DNA of 64,000 bases, from the NCBI GenBank assembly GCA_039803205.1, contig JBDRYB010000006.1, positions 32,001 to 96,000 on the forward strand. The letters are read 5' to 3'. The DNA comes from a candidate division WOR-3 bacterium (lineage in GTDB: Bacteria > Hydrothermota > Hydrothermia > JBDRYB01). Below, one piece after another: positions 29,318-48,861 of this stretch. Position 1 is the stretch's first letter, and the number at the start of each line of letters is the position of its first letter. The notes under the pieces were generated by a model. The model was not told the origin of the DNA and ran no database searches. It saw only the letters and a list, made by a program, of their open reading frames with translations. The position numbers and the translations under genes were made by a program.

Positions 29318-29735
29318 TCCCGAACTGACCATGAGTAATACGGCCGCGATTCAAAGGCTCCTGACGGATATGGCCAAGGAATCCCCGAGGTGCGTTCTTC
29401 TTTGTATTTATAGGGAAGGAAAAGAAACCCCATCTTCTTACATTACCACCGGTATACTCTCCGATCCGGTTCCATTCTCCTCGTTTATATGCAAGATTCT
29501 CAGTGCGGCTGAGGAGGTTATATCCGCGAGGCTCGGCAAAGCCGAACAAATAAAGCACCTAATGGTGGAAACCGAAAGGTTCACGATGATCTCGAGGAGG
29601 CTCTGGAAAAGCTACTATGTCCTCTTGGTGCTCAGGTCTCCGGTTGAGTGCCTCGGCATGCCCATAGAGTTGCTGGACAGGTGGGAAGGAACCCTGAGGG
29701 AGAATCTGGCAAATATAGCTGGAGGTCTAGACTAA
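29307..29735 (+). CDS. Second roadblock/LC7-like protein
   Basis: IKHLMVETERFTMISRRL...YYVLLVL...LG pattern typical of the fold (alternative start 29331). Confidence 0.5.
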   Translation: MNDDPELTMSNTAAIQRLLTDMAKESPRCVLLCIYREGKETPSSYITTGILSDPVPFSSFICKILSAAEEVISARLGKAEQIKHLMVETERFTMISRRLWKSYYVLLVLRSPVECLGMPIELLDRWEGTLRENLANIAGGLD

Positions 29736-29782
29736 GAGGGGCCGGAGCCCTTCGGGTTAGCTTTATAATTTATGCCTGTGAG

Positions 29783-30967
29783 ATGAGATTCGTTCATGTA
29801 GCGGATACCCATATTGGCGCTGGGGGCTCCAAGGAAAGGGCTGATGATTTCAGATCCGCGTTCCGCGAGATAATAGACAGAACCCTTGAGCTCTCAGCGA
29901 GGGCTTTTGTTCATGCGGGAGACCTCTTTGAAGGCTCCAAGCCATCCGTAAAGGACATAGTATTCGTTGCCAGTGAAATAAAGCGCCTGATCAACGAGGG
30001 TATAGAGGTCCTCCTACTGCACGGCAATCACGACAGGATAACCATAAAAGGAGAGGTGCCACCCCAGAGCATCCTTGAGCTTTTCGGCGCAAAGGTTTTT
30101 GGTTTCACAAGTGAAAGAAGATGCTATACGGTTGATGGGGTTGAGTTTTGGGGGATCCCATATATGGACCATAGTAATAGGTTCATTGAGTTCCTCTCTG
30201 AGATAGGGAGCCAAGCAAAAAGCCCAGCCGTCTTGGTTCTTCACCAGTTTTTCTGTCCCCCGACTTCCTTTGGTAATCCAATCTTATATGCGGATGACAT
30301 ACCGGAGGTCTTCTCATATGTCGCTCTTGGCCACTGGCACCTACCTTGGAAAAGGGAAGGTTTTCGCTATGCCTATCCTGGTGCACCAGAACCAACAGAG
30401 CTTTCAAGCGATCAGGCAATTGAAAAGAGAGGCTTTTGGCTCGTTGATATTACCGAACAGGGGGTAAAACTGGAGTTTCAACCCCTCTCGTGCACGAGGC
30501 CTTTTTTCTATCTTGAGTCCAATTCCAATAAAGATAAGCTAAAAGAACATCTTGTGAACCTCAGGGATAAGATCAAATCCTCTGCCAAAAGGCCCATGCT
30601 CAAGATCAAGCTGACTGTGGGGCCTGATACGAATGCCGATCAGCTTATAGAAGATGCGATATACGAATCGGGGTTAAATCTGGACGACATCATCCTGCTG
30701 AGCCCTAATATTGATAGAGCAATACCATCCCCGTTTGCGGATGAAATCAGCGAGGAATACAAGGCGGAAGACATCATCACGAAGTTTTTTGGAGATGACC
30801 CACAACAACTTGAGCTCGTTCTCGCTATGAGGGACGCCATAAGACAAACCGAGGCTGAGCGGGAATCGTCAGGAACACAGGCAACGAGGGATAGACAAGC
30901 CCTCATTGAAGCCGCAAAGGACGCCGCTCAGAGATTCCTCAAGGAGAAACAAAATGCGCCTTATTAG
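29783..30967 (+). CDS. mre11: Mre11/SbcD DNA repair nuclease
   Basis: HVADTHIG, HAGDLF, GNHD, LHQ, ALGHWH, YPGAPE. Start revised to ATG 29783. Confidence 0.9.
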   Translation: MRFVHVADTHIGAGGSKERADDFRSAFREIIDRTLELSARAFVHAGDLFEGSKPSVKDIVFVASEIKRLINEGIEVLLLHGNHDRITIKGEVPPQSILELFGAKVFGFTSERRCYTVDGVEFWGIPYMDHSNRFIEFLSEIGSQAKSPAVLVLHQFFCPPTSFGNPILYADDIPEVFSYVALGHWHLPWKREGFRYAYPGAPEPTELSSDQAIEKRGFWLVDITEQGVKLEFQPLSCTRPFFYLESNSNKDKLKEHLVNLRDKIKSSAKRPMLKIKLTVGPDTNADQLIEDAIYESGLNLDDIILLSPNIDRAIPSPFADEISEEYKAEDIITKFFGDDPQQLELVLAMRDAIRQTEAERESSGTQATRDRQALIEAAKDAAQRFLKEKQNAPY

Positions 30968-33608
30968 CTTGCGCCTCAGAAACTTTCTGAGCCACGAGGA
31001 TACCTATGTTGAGTTTCCCGAGACAGGGATAACCCTCATCTCCGGCGAAAACGCAACGGGGAAGAGCTCCCTCTTTGATGCCTTCCGTTTCGCGCTCTTT
31101 AGTAGGAAGGCTTTCCCAAGGCCGAGAGACCTTATTTCAAAGGGAGCAAAGAGTTTCTCGGTTGAGGCTAAATTCAAACACAAGAACTCCACCTACACCA
31201 TTATAAGGGAGTATACGGTGGCAGGAGATACTCTGAGACCAACAAGGGCTGAGATCAGGGTTGACGGAAGGCTGGCCGCGGAAGGGGTTAACCCCGTTGA
31301 CTCTTTCATCATCCGTGAAATAGGCTTGAATCACGAGATGTTCAAGTATTCAGTAATGGCTGTTCAGAACGAGATAAGTGGGGTTCTGGGGCTTTCCTCC
31401 CAGGAAAGGAAGGCAGTTTTTGAGAGGATGTTCGGGTATCAGCATCTTATCCTCATTGCTGAGGCTGTCAGGTCTCTTGCGGAATCCGATAGGGATTTGA
31501 TTAATGGGCTCCTGGGTTCAAAAGGATACAAGAGCAAAGCGGGGCTTGAGCACGATATATCGCAGAAAAATGCCTCTCTCAGCGAGCAGAAAAGCGCTCT
31601 TTCCGCGCTGATCTTGGAGAAGGAGGCCCTCAAAACCGAAGAAAGAAGGCTGTCAGAAAAAGGGAGGGCCATAGAGGAAGAGGACAAGGCCCTAAAGGAA
31701 GCCGAGATAGAAAAAGCCGCTATTCTGAGCGAGATAAGGGTGAGGGAGGAGGAGATAACCAGCCTGGAGAGGTGGTGTCAGGAAAGCAGAAGAAAGATAT
31801 CCGAATTACCGGAGCTAAAGGAATCGCTTGCCCAATTGGAAGGCCCACTTGCCGAGCTTTCCGCGCTTAGAGAGGAGGAAGACTTGGTGGAGATATACGA
31901 GAAAAGGGGTTCCGAGGCCTCGGCGCTTGAGAAGAGGCTTGAGGAAATAAATGGATACGAGAAGGAACTCGCGAGGCTTTTCCCGATTCACGAGGAGTTT
32001 CTGAGACTTCATGAGGAGGAAAGGAGGGCTCAGGAAGAGCTCGTGGGGTTCAAGGAGGCGTTTGGAAAGGCCACTGAGCTCACAGAGAGACTTAACTGGG
32101 CCAGGAGAAAGAGAGAGCTTGCGGAACAAAAACTTCAGGAGTTTTCCGGCATAGCTGAGACAAAGGGCGATCTCCTGGCTAGGATAGAGGCGAACGAATC
32201 CGAGCTCAGAAAAACCGAGGCGGAGCGCGGCGCGGCCGAGGAAAGGGCTAAAAAGGCCCAGAAGGACATTTCCGAGGTTCAGACCCTTGGGGAAATATGC
32301 CCTCTCTGCAAACAGACGCTCAGCCAGGAACACAAGGCTCGCGTTCTCGGGATATTGGAGAAGGAGTTCAGAGAGGCAAGCGGGCTCGTTGATAACCTGG
32401 CGGCAAAACTGGAGGCGCTCAAGAAGGAAATTGAAGAATTGAAGAGAATGGTCCAGAAAGCGGAGCAGAAGGAGCGCTTGAGCGAGGAGCTTCTGGGCCT
32501 TCTCGCCGAGGAAAAGGAGCTGAGGGAACGGCTTGAGGCGCTTTCCGGCGTAAAGGAGAAGCACGAGGCTCTCGTATCAAAACTGTCTGAGCTCCGCGGG
32601 AAAATACAGGAGCTTGAGCCGGATGAGAATGCTTTCGTGGCCGCTGAGGATTTTATCCGGAGGAACCCCAAGGGGGAACTTGAGCTCAAGCTGAGCGATA
32701 TCAGAAAAGAAATGGAGGCGCTCAGGGCCAAAAGGCGATTCCCGGACATGGGCCTGGATGAGATAAAAAAGAGGATAAATGACCTTCTCCCATCAGAGAA
32801 GACAGCGATAAAAATATCTTCGGCTATAGAAACCCTGGAGGCCCTCGCGATTGAATTGGTAAACCGGGAATCAACCCTCGGGTCAAAAAGATCCGAGCTT
32901 GCAGAGAGTAGGGCAAGACTTGACAGACTCAGAGGCATTGAGGAGAAAAGGGCGGAACTGGAGAAGAGAAAAAGGGCTCACTCGGAGGCCCTTGAACTTC
33001 TACGGAATAAGCAGGAAGAGCTGAACGAGCGAGAGAACGACTTGAGCAAGGCTGTGGCATTCGCGGAACAAGAGCTGCGTAATCTATCGGATATACACGC
33101 TACAATTGAGCAGTCCGAGAAAAGGATCGGCCTGTTCTCAAGGATAAGGGAGAAACTGGAGTCGCCTCAGGGAATAGAGGGAGAATTCAAACTCTCCATG
33201 CGCAGGCTTGAGGACAACCTGAACGCTTATTTTCGGGACTTTTCATTCTCCGGCCTCCACAAGGTTCGTCTGAACGAGAATTTTGAGCCGGTCAAAATAG
33301 ATGAGATGGGGAGGGAGATGGCGAGGCTCTCGGGAGGGGAACAGGTTGCTCTGGACATAGCCATGAGGTTCTCAATAGCAAGGACGCTTCTTGGCACAGA
33401 GAGTGAATCCCTTTTCCTTGACGAGCCAACCCACAACCTTGACCAGGAAAGGATGTCATCCCTACGACAACTCCTCATGCAATTCAGAACCCACCCCATC
33501 TCGCCCCAATTGATAATAATAACCCACGAAGAGGACATGAAAGCGGTAGCTGACACCACAATTGAGGTGATAAAGGAGGGGGGGTTTTCAAGGGTGATAT
33601 TAGAGTGA
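30954..33608 (+). CDS. rad50: Rad50/SbcC SMC-family ATPase
   Basis: GENATGKSS Walker A, CPLC zinc hook in the coiled coil, LSGGEQ signature, FLDEPTHNLD, IITH; AAGGAG RBS. Confidence 0.92.
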   Translation: MRLISLRLRNFLSHEDTYVEFPETGITLISGENATGKSSLFDAFRFALFSRKAFPRPRDLISKGAKSFSVEAKFKHKNSTYTIIREYTVAGDTLRPTRAEIRVDGRLAAEGVNPVDSFIIREIGLNHEMFKYSVMAVQNEISGVLGLSSQERKAVFERMFGYQHLILIAEAVRSLAESDRDLINGLLGSKGYKSKAGLEHDISQKNASLSEQKSALSALILEKEALKTEERRLSEKGRAIEEEDKALKEAEIEKAAILSEIRVREEEITSLERWCQESRRKISELPELKESLAQLEGPLAELSALREEEDLVEIYEKRGSEASALEKRLEEINGYEKELARLFPIHEEFLRLHEEERRAQEELVGFKEAFGKATELTERLNWARRKRELAEQKLQEFSGIAETKGDLLARIEANESELRKTEAERGAAEERAKKAQKDISEVQTLGEICPLCKQTLSQEHKARVLGILEKEFREASGLVDNLAAKLEALKKEIEELKRMVQKAEQKERLSEELLGLLAEEKELRERLEALSGVKEKHEALVSKLSELRGKIQELEPDENAFVAAEDFIRRNPKGELELKLSDIRKEMEALRAKRRFPDMGLDEIKKRINDLLPSEKTAIKISSAIETLEALAIELVNRESTLGSKRSELAESRARLDRLRGIEEKRAELEKRKRAHSEALELLRNKQEELNERENDLSKAVAFAEQELRNLSDIHATIEQSEKRIGLFSRIREKLESPQGIEGEFKLSMRRLEDNLNAYFRDFSFSGLHKVRLNENFEPVKIDEMGREMARLSGGEQVALDIAMRFSIARTLLGTESESLFLDEPTHNLDQERMSSLRQLLMQFRTHPISPQLIIITHEEDMKAVADTTIEVIKEGGFSRVILE

Positions 33609-42190: not shown

Positions 42191-42210
42191 CTGGCGCAAT
42201 AATGCGCCAG
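42191..42210. promoter_or_regulatory. Palindrome CTGGCGCA-ATAA-TGCGCCAG, candidate operator
   Basis: Perfect 8-bp arms in the divergent fusA2/nurA promoter, just upstream of TATAAT (42217-42222). Confidence 0.4.
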
Positions 42211-42228
42211 GAGCCTTATAATTTGCCG

Positions 42229-43308
42229 GTGCATCCTGTTCTATACGCGAAGATAATCGGACTGAGAGAGAGGCTCCTGCAACTGAGAGAGGAACTTGAA
42301 CTGCGCAGGACCGATCTTGATGTGGGGAGCTTTTGGAAGACCTGGCATGGAAAGGCTGAGAGCTCTCATATAGCCGCAGGCGACGGCTCTTTTAACTATG
42401 CCAGGCGCCTCGGTTTTTGGCTATTTGGCGCCACGGCCTCGGGGGTCTACTCCGGATGCGACGCGGGAGATGTGTTTCTTGGGGAGTTGGACATCCTTAG
42501 GCTCGGGGATATCGGAGAGGATGCTCTGAGAGCCCTCGCTCAGTCAGGCTCAAAGATCATGGAGGCAAAGGCCCTAAAAATGGCCGGGGAAAGGATAACG
42601 GGCGGCCTGCTCCTGGCCGACGGGGCGCTTTCCGGCCTCTTCAAGAACTACACGGAGGACATGGGCAATAATAGAATAGCCTCGCTGGCAGGATTGGGGC
42701 CTGGTGAGGAGGAGAGGCTCTTCAGGTGGGCGAAGGACATTGCTGGGGAGCTCCCGGAGAACCCGGATGGGTGGTCAAGCTGGTCGGGCAAGGACATGGT
42801 GTTCTCTTTGGAGGAGGATAGGCGGTTTTCGGTTGGGATCCTCATGGCCCTTTGCAGAAAGGAGTATCTCGCTACCCTAATAGGGCTTTTGGATGGGAAC
42901 GCTAACCGAATGGTGGGCATAGCCAAAACATCTGAGGAATGCACGATAATTGAGGGATTCCCTGACATATATGTTCTGAGCGTGGGCACTCGGGCGCCGG
43001 GTTTCACCGAGCCAAAGCCCGTTGAATTGCCAAAGGATGAGGGACTTCCCGAACTTCCATGCTCTTTCTTCTACGCGAGGCTTGAGGAGGGTTATGGGGT
43101 GATGAGGTTGGAGGTCTTTGCTGAACCTGAGAAGGTTGACCCACCGAGATTGCTTTCGGTGCTCCTTGGGGCTTCTGTCTCAGGCTATCCATATCCTCTG
43201 GCCAAGGCTCACCATATGTGTTCGTTGTCGTTCTCATCGCTCTATAAATACCTCGGCCTTGCTGGGGGAAGATGGGAACCCTCGGGAAGAGAAGCCTTGT
43301 TTCAATAG
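42229..43308 (+). CDS. nurA: NurA-family DNA double-strand-break repair nuclease
   Basis: AAGDGS, LLADGAL, GIAKTS, GYPYPLAKAH. GTG start 6 nt after TATAAT. Confidence 0.85.
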   Translation: MHPVLYAKIIGLRERLLQLREELELRRTDLDVGSFWKTWHGKAESSHIAAGDGSFNYARRLGFWLFGATASGVYSGCDAGDVFLGELDILRLGDIGEDALRALAQSGSKIMEAKALKMAGERITGGLLLADGALSGLFKNYTEDMGNNRIASLAGLGPGEEERLFRWAKDIAGELPENPDGWSSWSGKDMVFSLEEDRRFSVGILMALCRKEYLATLIGLLDGNANRMVGIAKTSEECTIIEGFPDIYVLSVGTRAPGFTEPKPVELPKDEGLPELPCSFFYARLEEGYGVMRLEVFAEPEKVDPPRLLSVLLGASVSGYPYPLAKAHHMCSLSFSSLYKYLGLAGGRWEPSGREALFQ

Positions 43309-43341: not shown

Positions 43342-45087
43342 GTGAAGCTTCTCCGGATCTCCCTCGCGCAGATGAACCCCCTAGTGGGAGATATGGGGGG
43401 CAATCTCGCTCGGATCAAGGCCGCTGTGGATGAGGCTCTCCTCGCGGGTTCTGACATCGTCGTTTTTCCTGAGTTGGCCATATGCGGTTATCCGCCTGAG
43501 GACCTGCTCCTGAGACCGGATTTCATAGAGGAGAACCTGAGAGCCATGCGCGATCTCACCGATTTCACGGATGGGAAAGACATCCTCGTCATAGCTGGCT
43601 TCGTTGATAAGACAGGTGACATACACAACGCGGCCGCCGTAATACACAATGGCAAGCTGCAGGATGTCTATCACAAGGCTTTTCTCCCCAATTACGGCGT
43701 CTTCGACGATAAGCGCTATTTCATGCCAGGCGAGCGTTTTCCGGTCTATGTTTTCCGAGGAGTGAGAATAGGGGTCAATATATGCGAAGACATCTGGCAT
43801 CCTGACGGGCCTCTGTATTATCAATCCCTCTTGGGAGACGCGGAGGTCATCGTGAACATAAATGCCTCGCCCTATCACATGGGTAAGTGGAGCCAGCGCG
43901 AGACCATGCTCTCAACGAGGGCCTCGGATAACGGGGTCTTTGTGGTCTATCTGAACTCCGTCGGGGGCCAGGACGAGCTGGTTTTTGATGGGGGCTCGGT
44001 TGTCTTCGGGCCGGACGGGGAGCTCGTGGCCAGGGCACCCATGTTCCAGGAAGGTCTCTTCACAATTGACATTGATCCGAGCCTCGTGATGAGGCACCGC
44101 GTCCACGACACACGGAGGAGGGAGCAAAAGATGAGGTGCGGCGCGCTTGGCTCTGTTGAAGAGATACTGATTGATTCCTCGGAGCTCAGAGAGCGAGAGA
44201 GGGCTCTATCTTTCCTAAGCAATACACCATCCCTAGAGGAGGAGGTCTGGAAAGCGCTTTTAACAGGGGTCTCGGATTACACGAGGAAAAACGGGTTCAA
44301 AAGCGTCGTGGTGGGGCTCTCCGGGGGAATAGACTCAGCCCTCGTCTCGGTTCTGGCAGCTGACGCGCTTGGGCCCGAGAATGTATTTTGCCTCTTCATG
44401 CCATCCCGTTATACATCCAGAGAGAGCCGCGAGGATGCCTTTGAGCTCGCAAAAAATCTCGGTGTCAGCATAACCGAGATACCCATAGACGGGCTTTTCC
44501 AGGCGTATCTTGACTGTCTTGCTCCCCATTTCAAGGGCAAGGAACCTGATATTACTGAGGAAAACATCCAGGCAAGAATAAGGGGCAACATCCTCATGGC
44601 GTTCTCAAACAAGTTCGGCCACCTGGTTCTCACGACAGGGAACAAGAGCGAGCTCTCAACCGGATACGCCACTTTATACGGAGACCTTTCAGGAGGTTTC
44701 GCACCCCTCAAGGATGTGCCAAAGACCCTCGTCTATAAGCTGGCCAGGTTCAGAAACTCCATTAACCCCGTGATCCCGGATAGGATGTTCAGTAAGCCGC
44801 CCTCCGCTGAGCTCAAGCCGAACCAGACCGATCAGGATACACTTCCCCCATATGAAATACTTGACCCAATTCTGCACCTCTACATAGAGGAGGATGCTCC
44901 GCCCTCGGAGATAATCGGAAGGGGATTTGACCCAGATACTGTCAGAAAGGTCGTCCGTATGGTTGATAGCTCAGAATACAAGCGCCGCCAGGCTCCTCCG
45001 GGCATAAAGATAACCGTGCGAGCCTTCGGCAGGGACAGGAGGATGCCGATAACGAACGGGTTCGGGGGCAAGGAGCGTGCCAGCTAG
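43342..45087 (+). CDS. nadE: Glutamine-dependent NAD(+) synthetase
   Basis: Nitrilase domain FPEL/K/ICED; GLSGGIDS, ENIQARIRG, TGNKSE, PPSAEL, EYKRRQAPPG. Confidence 0.96.
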   Translation: MKLLRISLAQMNPLVGDMGGNLARIKAAVDEALLAGSDIVVFPELAICGYPPEDLLLRPDFIEENLRAMRDLTDFTDGKDILVIAGFVDKTGDIHNAAAVIHNGKLQDVYHKAFLPNYGVFDDKRYFMPGERFPVYVFRGVRIGVNICEDIWHPDGPLYYQSLLGDAEVIVNINASPYHMGKWSQRETMLSTRASDNGVFVVYLNSVGGQDELVFDGGSVVFGPDGELVARAPMFQEGLFTIDIDPSLVMRHRVHDTRRREQKMRCGALGSVEEILIDSSELRERERALSFLSNTPSLEEEVWKALLTGVSDYTRKNGFKSVVVGLSGGIDSALVSVLAADALGPENVFCLFMPSRYTSRESREDAFELAKNLGVSITEIPIDGLFQAYLDCLAPHFKGKEPDITEENIQARIRGNILMAFSNKFGHLVLTTGNKSELSTGYATLYGDLSGGFAPLKDVPKTLVYKLARFRNSINPVIPDRMFSKPPSAELKPNQTDQDTLPPYEILDPILHLYIEEDAPPSEIIGRGFDPDTVRKVVRMVDSSEYKRRQAPPGIKITVRAFGRDRRMPITNGFGGKERAS

Positions 45088-46447
45088 ACCTTGGACAGAG
45101 GTCCTGGGGGAAGCCGAAAGCTTCCTGCTCCTTGAAGACCTCTTCACTATGACAAACAGGCTGGCCCATTTTTCGGACAGGGCCATGGAGATCATCCTTA
45201 ACGAGAAAAGAAGGCCCACGAGTCTTGCAAAGCTCCTGTTCTTTCGGCTCTATTTCAAGAGGTTCTCGTCATTAGCCGAGGAGATGATCTCCAGGCCCAG
45301 AAAGGCCATAGTCCGTGAGAGAAAGCTGGTTCTCTCGGCGAAGCTCTCGGCCGTTGACGCGTCCGTGCTCGTTAACGCTATAAAGGCCGGTTATGATGGC
45401 TCATCCAGAACCTTTCCCGAAAAGGTCATTGCCCCCGTCCGCACTGCAACCATTAACACCTATGAAATGCGGTTCTTGTTGTGGTTCGTGAATCTCCTGT
45501 TCGGATACCTGAACGAGGTTATCCCAAAGTGGGAGACTGAAACGAGGGGAAACGAGAACACGCCGCTTGTCAGCTCTCATGAGCTCATCCGGGCGAGGCA
45601 CAAATTGGCCTGGCTTAGGGAAAACCTTGAGGACATGGGCGTAGAGCCTTTGGATTATCCGGAAAACCCTCCCCTCTCGTTCACATCCCACCCGGTTTAT
45701 TCCCAGATCTGGCGGTTTTACAGGAGGTTTGAGAGCTTGATCGCGCCAAAAGGATGGAATGAGGTCATGAACCTTCAAGATTGGCCAACCCTCTACGAGC
45801 TCTGGTGCTTCCTCTCGGTTCTGTTTCATTTTGAAGCACATTGGTCAAAGCACGATCAGGGCGCCGCAAAGGCCCTATCTGAGGAGCTCTGGATTGAGAA
45901 TACCTGGGACCTCTGGAAAATAGGCACGAGGCCATTTGCCAAGCTCTTGGAAAACAGAAACACCCCTTGCGCCGCAGGGTTTGCTCTGGACGAAGGGATA
46001 ACCCTGTATTTCCAGAGAAGGTTTCCCTATTACGAGGGCGTTGGGGACGGTCTCGGAAGCCTTTCAACGGAATACATTCCGGACATCTGCTTCATCTCAT
46101 CCAAAGGGAACCTGCCTGTTCTCATCCTTGACGCCAAGATGCAGGCATACGGAGGCCTCATAGGCAAACCCGAGACCGAAGAGGAGATAAAGGGCCAAAT
46201 ACCAGGCCTGCGCAAGATGCACATCTATCGCGATGCTGTTGTCCAATACGGCGACCCAGCGGTCTGGGGGGCTTTCGCGCTTGCTCCCCTTGCGCCAAGG
46301 CTTTCGGATAAAGTAAAATTTAGGCCGTTTGATCCGGCGTGGAGGATGAGGCACGGGTTCGGAGCCATAGAGATGAGGCCCTCAACGAAAGAGAGGGCCT
46401 TGGAGGAGATAAGGGAGCTTGTTGAGAAATGGAAAAGCCAAGTATAG
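45077..46447 (+). CDS. McrC-like DUF2357 / PD-(D/E)xK nuclease
   Basis: NTYEMRF, HPVYSQI, LYELWCF, IPDI...ILDAK, KMHIYRDA. Adjacent to an McrB-like gene. Confidence 0.82.
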   Translation: MPARPWTEVLGEAESFLLLEDLFTMTNRLAHFSDRAMEIILNEKRRPTSLAKLLFFRLYFKRFSSLAEEMISRPRKAIVRERKLVLSAKLSAVDASVLVNAIKAGYDGSSRTFPEKVIAPVRTATINTYEMRFLLWFVNLLFGYLNEVIPKWETETRGNENTPLVSSHELIRARHKLAWLRENLEDMGVEPLDYPENPPLSFTSHPVYSQIWRFYRRFESLIAPKGWNEVMNLQDWPTLYELWCFLSVLFHFEAHWSKHDQGAAKALSEELWIENTWDLWKIGTRPFAKLLENRNTPCAAGFALDEGITLYFQRRFPYYEGVGDGLGSLSTEYIPDICFISSKGNLPVLILDAKMQAYGGLIGKPETEEEIKGQIPGLRKMHIYRDAVVQYGDPAVWGAFALAPLAPRLSDKVKFRPFDPAWRMRHGFGAIEMRPSTKERALEEIRELVEKWKSQV

Positions 46448-46469
46448 GGGCAACCCCCTGCGGTTGCCC
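46448..46469 (+). other. GC-rich hairpin between mcrC-like and mcrB-like genes
   Basis: GGGCAACC-CCCTGC-GGTTGCCC immediately after the stop codon; no U-tract on the plus strand. Confidence 0.45.
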
Positions 46470-46568
46470 AAATCCGGATAAGAAACAGGCGCGAGGGCCT
46501 GCTAGGCATCAGCAATACCGGCCTGCCCCTACGGATCCGGGGATCGCAAAATTCGGAGGGATAGGAGA

Positions 46569-48473
46569 ATGAGGGCATTTCTTGAGAGCTGTAATTATTA
46601 TAGGATAATGGAAGCAGGGTACTTCAAAAATCTTCTGAAATGGTATACCAAATCAGAGCTTATACAGAAAGCTCTTAATGATGACCGAATCACCATCCAT
46701 AGATATCTCGGTAGTTTTCTTGGCCTGGGATATGCAACAGAAAGAAAAGACCTTGAAGACTACTTACTGGAAATTCAGGATCAAGACTCTAGACCAGAGC
46801 CTTTGGTTGACAGATTACTCAGAGCTCTGAATGACACGGATCCAATATTAAGAAGGGAAGCCGCATGGGACATTGGCAGTGTTGACTGGGGAGAGAAAAT
46901 AGAGGAAGTAGCGAACGCGCTGATTAAAGCTCTGAAAGAGGATAAGGATAGTAGGGTTAGATTTAGAGCTGCTATGAGCCTGGGAGATGTCGGTGCTTCT
47001 CCGGATTGCCCAGCTGATAAGAGAAACGAGATAATTGACGCCCTGATTGAAGCTTTGGAGAAGGAGGAATATAGGTGGGTCAGAGAGGATGTTGCCGAGG
47101 CCCTAGGGAAAATTGGCGTTTCTCCGGATTGCCCAGCTGATAAGAGAAATGAGATAATTGACGCCCTGATTGAAGCTTTGGAAAAGGAGGAATATAGTTG
47201 GGTCAGAGAGTATGTTGCCGAGGCCCTAGGGAAAATTGGCGTTTCTCCGGATTGCCCAGCTGATAAGAGAAATGAGATATTTGCCGTCCTGATTGAAGAT
47301 TTGAAAAAAGAGAAGTATGGTGATACTAGAGAGATTGTTTACGAGGCCCTGAAGGCCCTCATAGAGGCGGGCGCGAAAATGCCCGGAACGGCAGAGGGGC
47401 CGAAAATTGCAAAAGGTGAGCCGCCAATATTCCCGGGCAAACCAGACTTTGAGGAAATCTGGCCCGCCTTTGAGAAACTCGCAAAAGGGAACAGGAATCT
47501 GGTCTATAACCAGAATGAGGTCCAGCAATACCACTCAGCCCTGTGGTCAAACCCAAAATCCACCCGGCACTTCGTCATCCTCGCTGGCCCATCCGGAACC
47601 GGGAAAACAAAGCTCTCGGAGGTATACGCGGAGGCGGTTGTCGGTGCCGAGAACAAAGAGAGAAGGGTAAAGCTCGTCGCCATAAGGCCAGAGTGGACTG
47701 ACGCGAGGGATTTCATGGGATACTGGAACCCCATCGCGAACGAGGGCAAGGGCGCATATTGCGACCCAAACGGCATAGTGGAGTTCATCAAGGAAGCAGA
47801 AGCCAACCCGAACCAGCCCTACTTTCTGATCCTTGATGAGATGAACATCGCGCATGTGGAATATTACTTCTCGGACTTCCTGAGCGGGATGGAATCCGGC
47901 GAGCCGATAAAACTGCACGGAGAGACATTCACGCTAGGGAAATACACGGTTGAGGGTGGCAGGATAACCATTCCCCCGAACCTCTTTGTTACGGGGACCA
48001 TAAATGTTGACGAAACAACCCACGAGATAAGCCCGAAGGTCCTGGATAGGGCGTATGTGCTGGTTTTGAAGGCAAACTGGGAGATGTATTACGAGGGATC
48101 GCCCCTGAGGGATGACCCGGAGCTCGGCGAGATATTTGAGAAGCTGATGGGAGAAGGGGGCCCGGTTAGAGCCGCGGGCGAGATCCTGGAGGAGGCTGGC
48201 CTCGGCTTCGGCTACAGGACAGCAGAGGACATCGTCAGGTATGTAGCAAAGGCCAAAGAGCTGGGCACCAACGAAACTGGGGCACTTGACCAGATGTTCA
48301 TCTCAAAGATACTTCCGAAGATAAAAGGGACGGAGAGCGAGGAGCTAGAAGAAGCTTTGAACAAGATGAAAGGCCTTGCGAAAAGGGAAAATCTCGCGGC
48401 CACAGAGGGGTATCTCGAGAAAATGGAAAATGACCTTAAGACGAAGGGGTTCGTCAAATTCACGCCGATATGA
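46569..48473 (+). CDS. McrB-like AAA+ GTPase with N-terminal HEAT repeats
   Basis: GPSGTGKT, RPEWTD, LILDEMNIAHVEYYFSDFLS, GTINVDETT, KVLDRA, KILPK. HEAT-type helices (LRREAAWDIG, VRFRAAMSLG, VREDVAEALG). Confidence 0.88.
   Translation: MRAFLESCNYYRIMEAGYFKNLLKWYTKSELIQKALNDDRITIHRYLGSFLGLGYATERKDLEDYLLEIQDQDSRPEPLVDRLLRALNDTDPILRREAAWDIGSVDWGEKIEEVANALIKALKEDKDSRVRFRAAMSLGDVGASPDCPADKRNEIIDALIEALEKEEYRWVREDVAEALGKIGVSPDCPADKRNEIIDALIEALEKEEYSWVREYVAEALGKIGVSPDCPADKRNEIFAVLIEDLKKEKYGDTREIVYEALKALIEAGAKMPGTAEGPKIAKGEPPIFPGKPDFEEIWPAFEKLAKGNRNLVYNQNEVQQYHSALWSNPKSTRHFVILAGPSGTGKTKLSEVYAEAVVGAENKERRVKLVAIRPEWTDARDFMGYWNPIANEGKGAYCDPNGIVEFIKEAEANPNQPYFLILDEMNIAHVEYYFSDFLSGMESGEPIKLHGETFTLGKYTVEGGRITIPPNLFVTGTINVDETTHEISPKVLDRAYVLVLKANWEMYYEGSPLRDDPELGEIFEKLMGEGGPVRAAGEILEEAGLGFGYRTAEDIVRYVAKAKELGTNETGALDQMFISKILPKIKGTESEELEEALNKMKGLAKRENLAATEGYLEKMENDLKTKGFVKFTPI
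46998..47350 (+). repeat. 123-bp tandem repeat (about 2.9 copies) encoding 41-aa HEAT units
   Basis: TCTCCGGATTGCCCAGCTGATAAGAGAAA starts at 46998, 47121 and 47244. Units 1 and 2 are nearly identical. Confidence 0.95.
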
Positions 48474-48504: not shown

Positions 48505-48861
48505 CTACTTCTTGAAGAGAGACATTACCAACACGGTCGCAATCGTGAAAGCCAAGTAGAACAGAAATACCAAGAGGCTTGCCCACAGGACCTGCGCGAG
48601 GGTAATCCCCCCGATGTCCCAGCTCAGGAATTTGAAGGCATACGGCGCGGTCAGTTTCCTGCCCACCTTGAAACTGAAGACCAAAACATATGAGGCAACA
48701 GCAAGAGGAGGCAGGGCAAGGACAAAGGCGCTGTTTCTCTCGGAAAAGTGTTCTTTGATCCACGGACAAAAGAGCAGGATGATGCTTGTCAGAGCAAGGA
48801 TAAACCCCGTGAGCATGAGGACCCAAAGCATGGTCGTCATGACGATCTTCTCCTCTTTCAT
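48505..48861 (-). CDS. Small 3-TM membrane protein
   Basis: Three hydrophobic segments; TATAAT 8 nt upstream of ATG. Confidence 0.65.
   Translation of the reverse strand: MKEEKIVMTTMLWVLMLTGFILALTSIILLFCPWIKEHFSERNSAFVLALPPLAVASYVLVFSFKVGRKLTAPYAFKFLSWDIGGITLAQVLWASLLVFLFYLAFTIATVLVMSLFKK

Follow-up and report, generated by a model that had tools for sequence, protein, structure and literature searches.

An McrBC-like system with a putative diversifying alphaRep-type receptor on McrB in a candidate division WOR-3 bacterium

The subject of this report is a two-gene McrBC-like system found in a window of 64,000 nucleotides from a candidate division WOR-3 bacterium (GenBank assembly GCA_039803205.1, contig JBDRYB010000006.1, positions 32,001 to 96,000), the term window being used here for that whole stretch. 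The McrB-type motor of this system is preceded by a solenoid of HEAT repeats, which is read, with a probability of about 0.5, as a putative diversifying protein receptor by which the motor-nuclease would be loaded or licensed, the ligand and the role in defence being what we infer. A narrower form of this reading, put forward tentatively, is protein-guided restriction, in which an McrBC would be aimed at invader DNA by a recombination-diversified, alphaRep-like receptor for a foreign, probably DNA-bound, protein, with alleles that differ between strains of the same population. The evidence suggests that a viral protein, and not a mark on the DNA, would give the system its aim. The machinery is that expected of an McrBC, whose cleavage may or may not depend here on modification.

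Motor, solenoid and nuclease partner

Both open reading frames are intact and co-oriented on the + strand, with the mcrC-like gene (456 amino acids, 45077-46447) upstream of the HEAT-McrB gene (634 amino acids, 46569-48473, or 621 if the alternative ATG at 46608 is used). The McrB protein matches the Pfam families HEAT_2 (2.1e-21), HEAT_PBS (1.6e-11) and AAA_5 (6.9e-06), with a weak NCBIfam match to McrB, and its AAA+ NTPase occupies 47445-48470. The first-pass annotation had described an intact McrB GTPase, and the motifs are in fact invariant in nine of nine aligned proteins of the clade defined below, i.e., GPSGTGKT at residues 340-347 (Walker A, 47586-47609), ILDEMN at 421-426 (Walker B, with D423 and E424, from 47835), NVD at 479-481 (48003-48011) and DRA at 493-495 (48045-48053). 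The NxD signature is followed by E (NVDE, 479-482) and is accompanied by a DUF2357 finger in McrC, which agrees with the pairing that had been expected for McrBs of the NxD type. Among 48,161 solved chains, the motor fold is closest to that of Escherichia coli McrB (6hz4_A, Z 19.2), and it also resembles that of Thermococcus gammatolerans McrB (Z 16.4).

Ahead of the motor, residues 79-266 (46803-47366) form five HEAT repeats of the alphaRep/PBS-lyase type, a putative ligand-binding solenoid, modelled as five helix pairs at a predicted local distance difference test (pLDDT) score of 79-96 and followed by a flexible linker (residues about 267-292, 47367-47444) and the AAA+ domain. The helix pairs are short, with a longest N-terminal helix of 17 residues. 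The earlier count of about five HEAT-like repeats is thus borne out, and the structure prediction that had been suggested as a check places the solenoid closest to the alphaRep binder 4xl5_C (Z 21.9, root-mean-square deviation 2.0 over 158 residues). All of the 20 listed PDB sequence matches of the solenoid are alphaRep-type designed binders, fusions or one named HEAT protein. In comparison with the alphaRep artificial binders (PMC3754942), the scaffold and the six variable positions are the same, whereas the repeats of the window are natural, have longer loops (units of 36-41 residues) and are fused to a motor. By residue counts, the solenoid is acidic (29 K/R against 45 D/E, isoelectric point 4.6), and the N-terminal regions of eight other clade proteins have isoelectric points of 4.6-6.6.

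The solenoid sits where other McrBs carry a DNA reader, and it may be that the solenoid, or the N-cap in front of it, reads modified or damaged DNA in a new way within an otherwise ordinary Type IV enzyme, in the manner of the HEAT-like AlkD glycosylases. This reading is unlikely, but it draws on several observations. The readers of McrBs have many folds (the 42 control McrBs, hand-picked from 160 loci, carry MrcB_N in 14 cases, EVE in two, Mrr_N in one and TPR in one, with nothing recognised in the rest), the repeats of AlkD recognise bases through tryptophan (PMC1874660) and Trp, Tyr or Phe fill 13 of 78 residues at the variable positions of the repeats, and a target of the m5C type would be tolerated, as no C5 methyltransferase was found in the 96%-complete genome (2.3 Mb) to which the window belongs. 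On the other hand, the groove of AlkD is positively charged (PMC1874660), whereas the solenoid is acidic both overall and at its variable positions. Nothing of the AlkC/AlkD type stands among its family matches or the 50 structural and 20 PDB sequence matches listed for it, a result that covers the listed matches only.

The earlier statement that no DNA reader is recognisable holds for residues 79-266, which are HEAT, and for the library scan of the whole protein, in which no known reader family matched at E<=0.1; it holds less firmly for residues 1-77, which are modelled as helical at a pLDDT under 50. Within them lies the N-cap, a helical segment of about 60 amino acids (46608-46793) with weak homology to the N-terminal ends of other clade proteins. 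Its conservation across the clade is weak: leave-one-out scores were 8.2 bits for the window protein (1 of 300 shuffles scored higher) and 13.6 bits for that of a second genome of the phylum, G002 (0 of 300), with none for P0003, and a search of the ESM Atlas with residues 12-80 gave no usable match.

The partner nuclease stands upstream, as had been described, so that C comes before B. McrC matches PDDEXK_7 (6.5e-08) and DUF2357 (4.5e-05; 23.2 bits, just below the cut-off of 23.3). The finger domain, at residues about 50-224 (45224-45748), has McrC chains of T. gammatolerans and E. coli as its top four structural matches (Z 8.4-9.2; VIA-align 9.1-9.2 to 6ut6_G and 6ut5_G), and the PD-(D/E)xK nuclease domain at residues 238-404 (45788-46288) keeps its motifs, PD(336)...DAK(352-354) and HxYRD(382-386), with D336, D352 and K354 intact. 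The overall McrC model is poor (pLDDT 59), and a Foldseek search with it returned no match at E<=0.001; a predicted complex of McrC with the N-terminus of McrB (residues 14-270) scored 0.00, which speaks neither for nor against contact. Ahead of the shared core, McrC has 9 residues, with 8-34 in the clade McrCs (n=6) against 88-127 in all 24 controls, and an in-frame stop stands eight codons upstream of its start. In NxD systems an N-terminal Ig-like domain of McrC is usual, not universal (Bell et al. 2024, PMC11090510), and the clade McrCs are without this extension of about 100 residues, which need not impair function, since the McrC of E. coli also goes without the N-terminal part of the scaffold.

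Variation of the repeats

Thirteen repeats from the window protein, P0003 and P0005 were aligned on a conserved arginine and compared at the positions that vary in the alphaRep libraries and with which those binders hold their protein partners, namely 18, 19, 22, 23, 26 and 30 (PMC3754942). Within proteins, identity is 0.205 at these six positions against 0.43 at the 15 others that the search pattern does not fix (permutation p=3.4e-4), and the 78 residues at the variable positions comprise 17 K/R, 20 D/E and 13 aromatic ones. NACHT-HEAT proteins, which rank with the top matches of the repeat profile, vary in the same way, and so does a HEAT protein that lacks a P-loop. A protein of 7137 amino acids, P0132, holds 29 stretches that match the clade HEAT profile, and no P-loop motif was found in it.

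The repeats also bear the marks of recent duplication. Three tandem copies of 123 nucleotides stand at 46979-47347, the second and third being 90% and 76% identical to the first, and the two newest are told apart by four codons, of which two carry synonymous changes and two, those for positions 18 and 23, alter the amino acid. Near-identical duplications of different periods occur in three of the four lineages with DNA, with 123 nucleotides in the window (99% over the best 80), 120 in G002 (95%) and 108 in the locus L102 (96%), and none in L101. No donor of repeats was found within the genome of the window, which encodes one other HEAT_2 protein.

Among strains, five other proteins have GTPases that are 98-99% identical to that of the window, with changes at 4-7 of 343 residues, and yet in the three of them that cover at least 20 residues of the last repeat, this repeat differs at 15 of 28 residues (P0002), 19 of 28 (P0275) and 9 of 20 (P0279). 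The last repeat of P0275 resembles the versions of G002 and P0003, which belong to other species, and P0002 has three repeats against five in the window. At the DNA level, contigs of the runs X3 and X4 together depart from the window at 70 of 658 nucleotides inside the repeats (four pieces) and at 70 of 6186 outside them (eight pieces), a count that dropped four pieces of boundary, spacer or N-cap (7/93, 11/199, 11/275 and 10/115) and to which 58 further, unlisted pieces did not contribute; the runs X1 and X2 match the window almost exactly.

Divergent N-termini between close relatives were considered as a special trait in themselves and rejected as such, given that 605 of 942 control McrB pairs with a GTPase identity of at least 84% (from 102 usable proteins of 111, the pairs not being independent) have a much less similar N-terminus, which comes about through swaps of whole domains. 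The control N-termini are bimodal: most pairs are non-homologous swaps, and the 371 homologous pairs have a median identity of 0.99 against 0.91 for the GTPase. An N-terminus at least eight points below the GTPase is found in 46 of these 371 pairs, against five of five clade pairs (0.59-0.89 against 0.86-0.99). Ordinary McrB N-termini are thus swapped whole or kept almost unchanged, and only the graded pattern of the clade differs. For example, N-termini of the DUF3578 type are 97-99% identical where their GTPases are 89-96% identical (five pairs), which bears on the reading of the solenoid as a DNA reader, as a reader of a fixed mark should be conserved in this way and the repeats are instead the least conserved part of the protein.

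Another explanation of the same variation is that the repeats are a decoy that soaks up inhibitors made by phages, a brake that restrains the enzyme or a near-neutral spacer, and that the core engages DNA with little specificity. The free variation in repeat number, from three in P0002 to five in the window, would fit this, as would the breaking of assemblies within the repeats, which is what unstable DNA does, so that the variation could be mutational. Even so, this explanation is improbable, considering that the changes are uneven, with scaffold positions staying and binding positions changing, that no frameshift or stop was found in any full-length clade member fetched, and that the helical N-terminus is kept across clade GTPases that are only 56-64% identical.

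Distribution, gene order and surroundings

A search for McrB homologues returned 2630, and among the 120 listed, nine stand at E<=1e-107, with the next at 1e-50; McrC homologues number 10. The nine clade sequences are monophyletic with a support of 1.0 in a FastTree of 102 GTPase domains (midpoint root; P0002, P0004, P0133 and P0137, near-duplicates or fragments, were left out). Three further fragments or incomplete proteins (P0131, P0133 and P0137) came from a profile search of 1.84 billion representatives. All full-length clade McrBs have helical N-termini. As to the architecture search that had been proposed for HEAT with McrB, Pfam HEAT is found in three of seven clade proteins scanned, against none of the 42 control McrBs, and the remaining four (P0006-P0009) have no such match. 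An independent fusion of an alpha-solenoid is seen in an NxD McrB of Nostoc linckia (L062:5825-7936), which has TPR repeats just before the GTPase and the order B-then-C.

The clade is rare. Its McrB occurs in two of 272 genomes of the phylum, the same two that hold a strong McrC match, and a third genome, G001, has a match of 37 residues only. A scan for the clade motif gave no match in the collections of genome contigs and viral contigs, a McrC alignment scan of genome contigs confirmed none, and a plasmid scan gave one weak DUF2357 match. DNA of the locus was found in four runs, all of them hot-spring metagenomes of one study, and no RNA dataset is among the listed holders of this DNA. In G002, one contig ends with mcrC and the beginning of mcrB, the two genes abutting without the spacer of the window, and the remainder of mcrB lies at the end of a second contig, the site being between genes which we take to be ribE and fhs; the nadE of G002 is presumably followed by ispG. 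In G001 (L194:2296-2460), nadE is followed by an mcrC stump of about 37 codons and then, on the other strand, by an aldehyde dehydrogenase gene, the same one that comes after HEAT-mcrB in L101 and L102, so that the arrangement is most simply explained by a deletion of the system. The stump is followed by a hairpin like that at 46448-46469 of the window, in reverse orientation.

Patchy presence, two different sites and the deletion stump fit a defence gene, and they bear on the least probable of the readings weighed here, that of a domesticated machine without a role in defence, whose solenoid binds a housekeeping partner. There is a precedent in PcdA of Staphylococcus aureus, an McrB co-opted for division (PMC10602043), and the housekeeping neighbourhood, the overlap of mcrC with nadE, the NurA gene upstream and the lack of clade-motif matches in viral contigs agree with it. 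A housekeeping role is harder to reconcile with a system that is held by two of 272 genomes, deleted in G001 and placed at a different site in G002, whose McrC is 57% identical between the window's genome and G002 while the flanking housekeeping proteins are 65-93% identical, and whose nuclease site is kept.

HEAT solenoids are typical adaptors, and the solenoid could serve a host protein as an adaptor or guard, either docking a DNA-binding subunit encoded elsewhere or monitoring a host protein that phages disturb. The first would solve the problem of DNA engagement, and the motors of LlaI and BsuMI do take a DNA-binding module in trans (R1 on R2 in LlaI). This is slightly less probable than the DNA reader, given that the neighbouring genes differ among the window's genome, G002, L101/L102 and L103, with no conserved third gene, and that the binding face, which a constant host partner would be expected to keep conserved, is the most variable part. 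The three-gene systems LlaI and BsuMI also have a separate R1 DNA-binding gene, methylases in the operon and a motor without a fused N-terminal domain, whereas the clade loci have two genes, a fused N-terminus and no methylase in the loci seen.

The order C-before-B holds wherever clade DNA was seen, and the stretches that follow mcrB in L102 (7.0 kb) and L103 (4.7 kb) contain no mcrC. This order is unusual, because 96 of 98 control loci (those flanked by 2.5 kb or more on both sides) are B-then-C, two had no McrC found and none is C-then-B. For other clade records, McrB and McrC pair on contigs of equal size (14132, 23078, 10062 and 14948), which suggests co-location, not order. Two shorter archaeal loci, of Thermococcaceae and Desulfurococcaceae (L080:2-2652 and L081:236-3896), are C-then-B without a HEAT match, and the McrC of L081 keeps the N-terminal extension. 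The absence of a methylase nearby, which had been offered as an argument, is correct as an observation, as no methylase gene stands in the window neighbourhood of the two genes. It was rejected as evidence and is not unusual, since a methylase motif occurs in only 19 of the 98 control loci (by a rough regular-expression test), and elsewhere in the genome 14 N4/N6 methyltransferase matches exceed the Pfam cut-off, besides six N6_Mtase matches.

The GTG start codon of mcrC lies in an overlap of 11 nucleotides with the stop of the NAD synthetase gene nadE, and a NurA-family nuclease gene (42202-43308) stands directly upstream of nadE; the other window neighbours include hydrogenase-maturation genes. 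Between the two genes, the spacer of 121 nucleotides (46448-46568) opens with an 8-bp GC-rich hairpin (46448-46469), which is present in a single copy in the genome and is not a repeated element; a scan of the locus for promoters and terminators gave nothing decisive. No coiled-coil gene adjoins HEAT-mcrB in the window. After it, on the - strand (48505-48861), comes a hydrophobic membrane protein of 118 amino acids without a family match, which has a 36% homologue elsewhere in G001 and none found in G002. At 29648-33608 lie genes which we take to be SbcD/Mre11-like and SbcC/Rad50-like.

Relation to known systems, mechanism and significance

Among known systems, the nearest is the NxD branch of McrBC (PMC11090510), which shares the NxD followed by E and the partner with DUF2357 and PD-(D/E)xK domains, and from which the window differs by the solenoid on McrB, the shorter McrC N-terminus and the C-before-B order. 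According to Bell et al. 2024 (PMC11090510), no NxD-motif McrB had been characterised; the paper assigns HEAT-like repeats to CnuCD/CnuD and leaves other NxD systems for later work. The CnuCD/CnuD proteins of Type III CoCoNuTs likewise join HEAT-like repeats to an NxD McrBC (PMC11090510), with the repeats on the McrC side or in a separate gene beside an Hsp70-like unit; those systems have coiled coils on McrB, a lost nuclease and HEPN and helicase genes, whereas the window has its repeats on McrB, an intact nuclease, two genes and none of these additions. HEAT has been described for the McrC side of CoCoNuTs alone, and on McrB it would be, judging from sequence, a new architecture for McrBC built on known machinery. 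A literature search, mostly outside subscription journals, found no HEAT-McrB fusion, and the figures of Bell et al. or bioRxiv supplements might show one.

The McrBCs of E. coli and T. gammatolerans (Niu et al. 2020, PMC7680126) share the motor and the finger fold, and the McrC of E. coli likewise has no N-terminal scaffold, but they carry an NxxD motif and a DUF3578 or YTH reader of methylated DNA, where the window has NxD and HEAT. Characterised McrBs, in the literature covered, pick their target by binding DNA (also drawn on were PMC12258605, 10.64898/2026.10.19.760177 and 10.64898/2026.08.31.748284). On the other hand, the STAND/NLR-like sensors (NACHT-HEAT; Avs, bNACHT) likewise combine an NTPase with a variable repeat solenoid, and HEAT is a recognised sensor-type repeat of NLRs; they have a NACHT/STAND NTPase, whereas the window has an McrB motor instead of a STAND switch (its nSTAND3 match, at 0.033, is under the cut-off), N-terminal repeats and a separate McrC effector. 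The proposed search with PADLOC gave PDC-M26A as the best match of McrB (1.2e-50), for the GTPase only, and no model for McrC. Membership of PDC-M26A was rejected, the GTPase match being equally strong for ordinary controls, and the term has no match in the main text of the preprint searched (10.1101/2024.01.29.577857).

McrB forms a hexamer with its N-terminal domains outside the ring and the finger of McrC in the pore, and McrC enhances hydrolysis and is unable to keep a stable hold on DNA by itself (Niu 2020, PMC7680126; Bui 2026). On this model, the six solenoids of a hexamer would bind a foreign protein, most simply one that sits on the DNA of a phage or mobile element, and this binding would load the motor-nuclease onto the same DNA. 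Alternatively, a complex that is otherwise silent may be licensed by the binding and then cut DNA rather unspecifically, as in abortive infection. In either case, the duplication, loss and exchange of repeats would retune the receptor, in place of the whole-domain swapping of ordinary McrBs. A phage protein as the trigger had been suggested from the start, and the alphaRep fold, the variation at binding positions, the acidic surface and the hypervariability among strains all lend support to the sensing of a protein; "triggered" may be the wrong verb, as tethering to a DNA-bound protein fits the architecture of McrB at least as well.

Several points weigh against a diversifying receptor with a role in defence. 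If no part of the complex reads DNA, the engagement of DNA by the motor goes without explanation, and a small element that binds DNA may be concealed in the N-cap. The variation at alphaRep positions marks a binding face and not a ligand or a phage target, because it is a general trait of the repeat family, and tandem repeats mutate and recombine fast without selection and are prone to misassembly. The strain contigs are short (150-186 nucleotides, depth 2.6-5.6), all stem from a single study and may contain misplaced copies, and neither the clade pairs nor the control pairs are independent. Aligned with the repeats, P0006-P0009 show no more than degenerate helical units, and their solenoid nature, taken from that alignment, is putative. 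The sequence alignment with TgMcrC took in only the nuclease domain and pointed to no basic residue of McrC that would stimulate GTP hydrolysis. Finally, housekeeping genes surround the locus, which lies in no defence island.

The rarity of the clade tempers its significance. If the reading as protein-guided restriction is true, pattern recognition of the NLR kind would be joined to a Type IV restriction machine, whose nuclease could be retargeted by the exchange of repeats. Given that the scaffold is that of the alphaRep libraries, a designed binder could replace the solenoid. If the clade does choose what it attacks by way of a solenoid that binds proteins, the way in which McrB N-terminal domains couple to the engagement of DNA could be examined in a minimal system of two genes, probably thermostable and with a natural allelic series, and the divide between restriction enzymes and NLR-like receptors would be less sharp than has been assumed.

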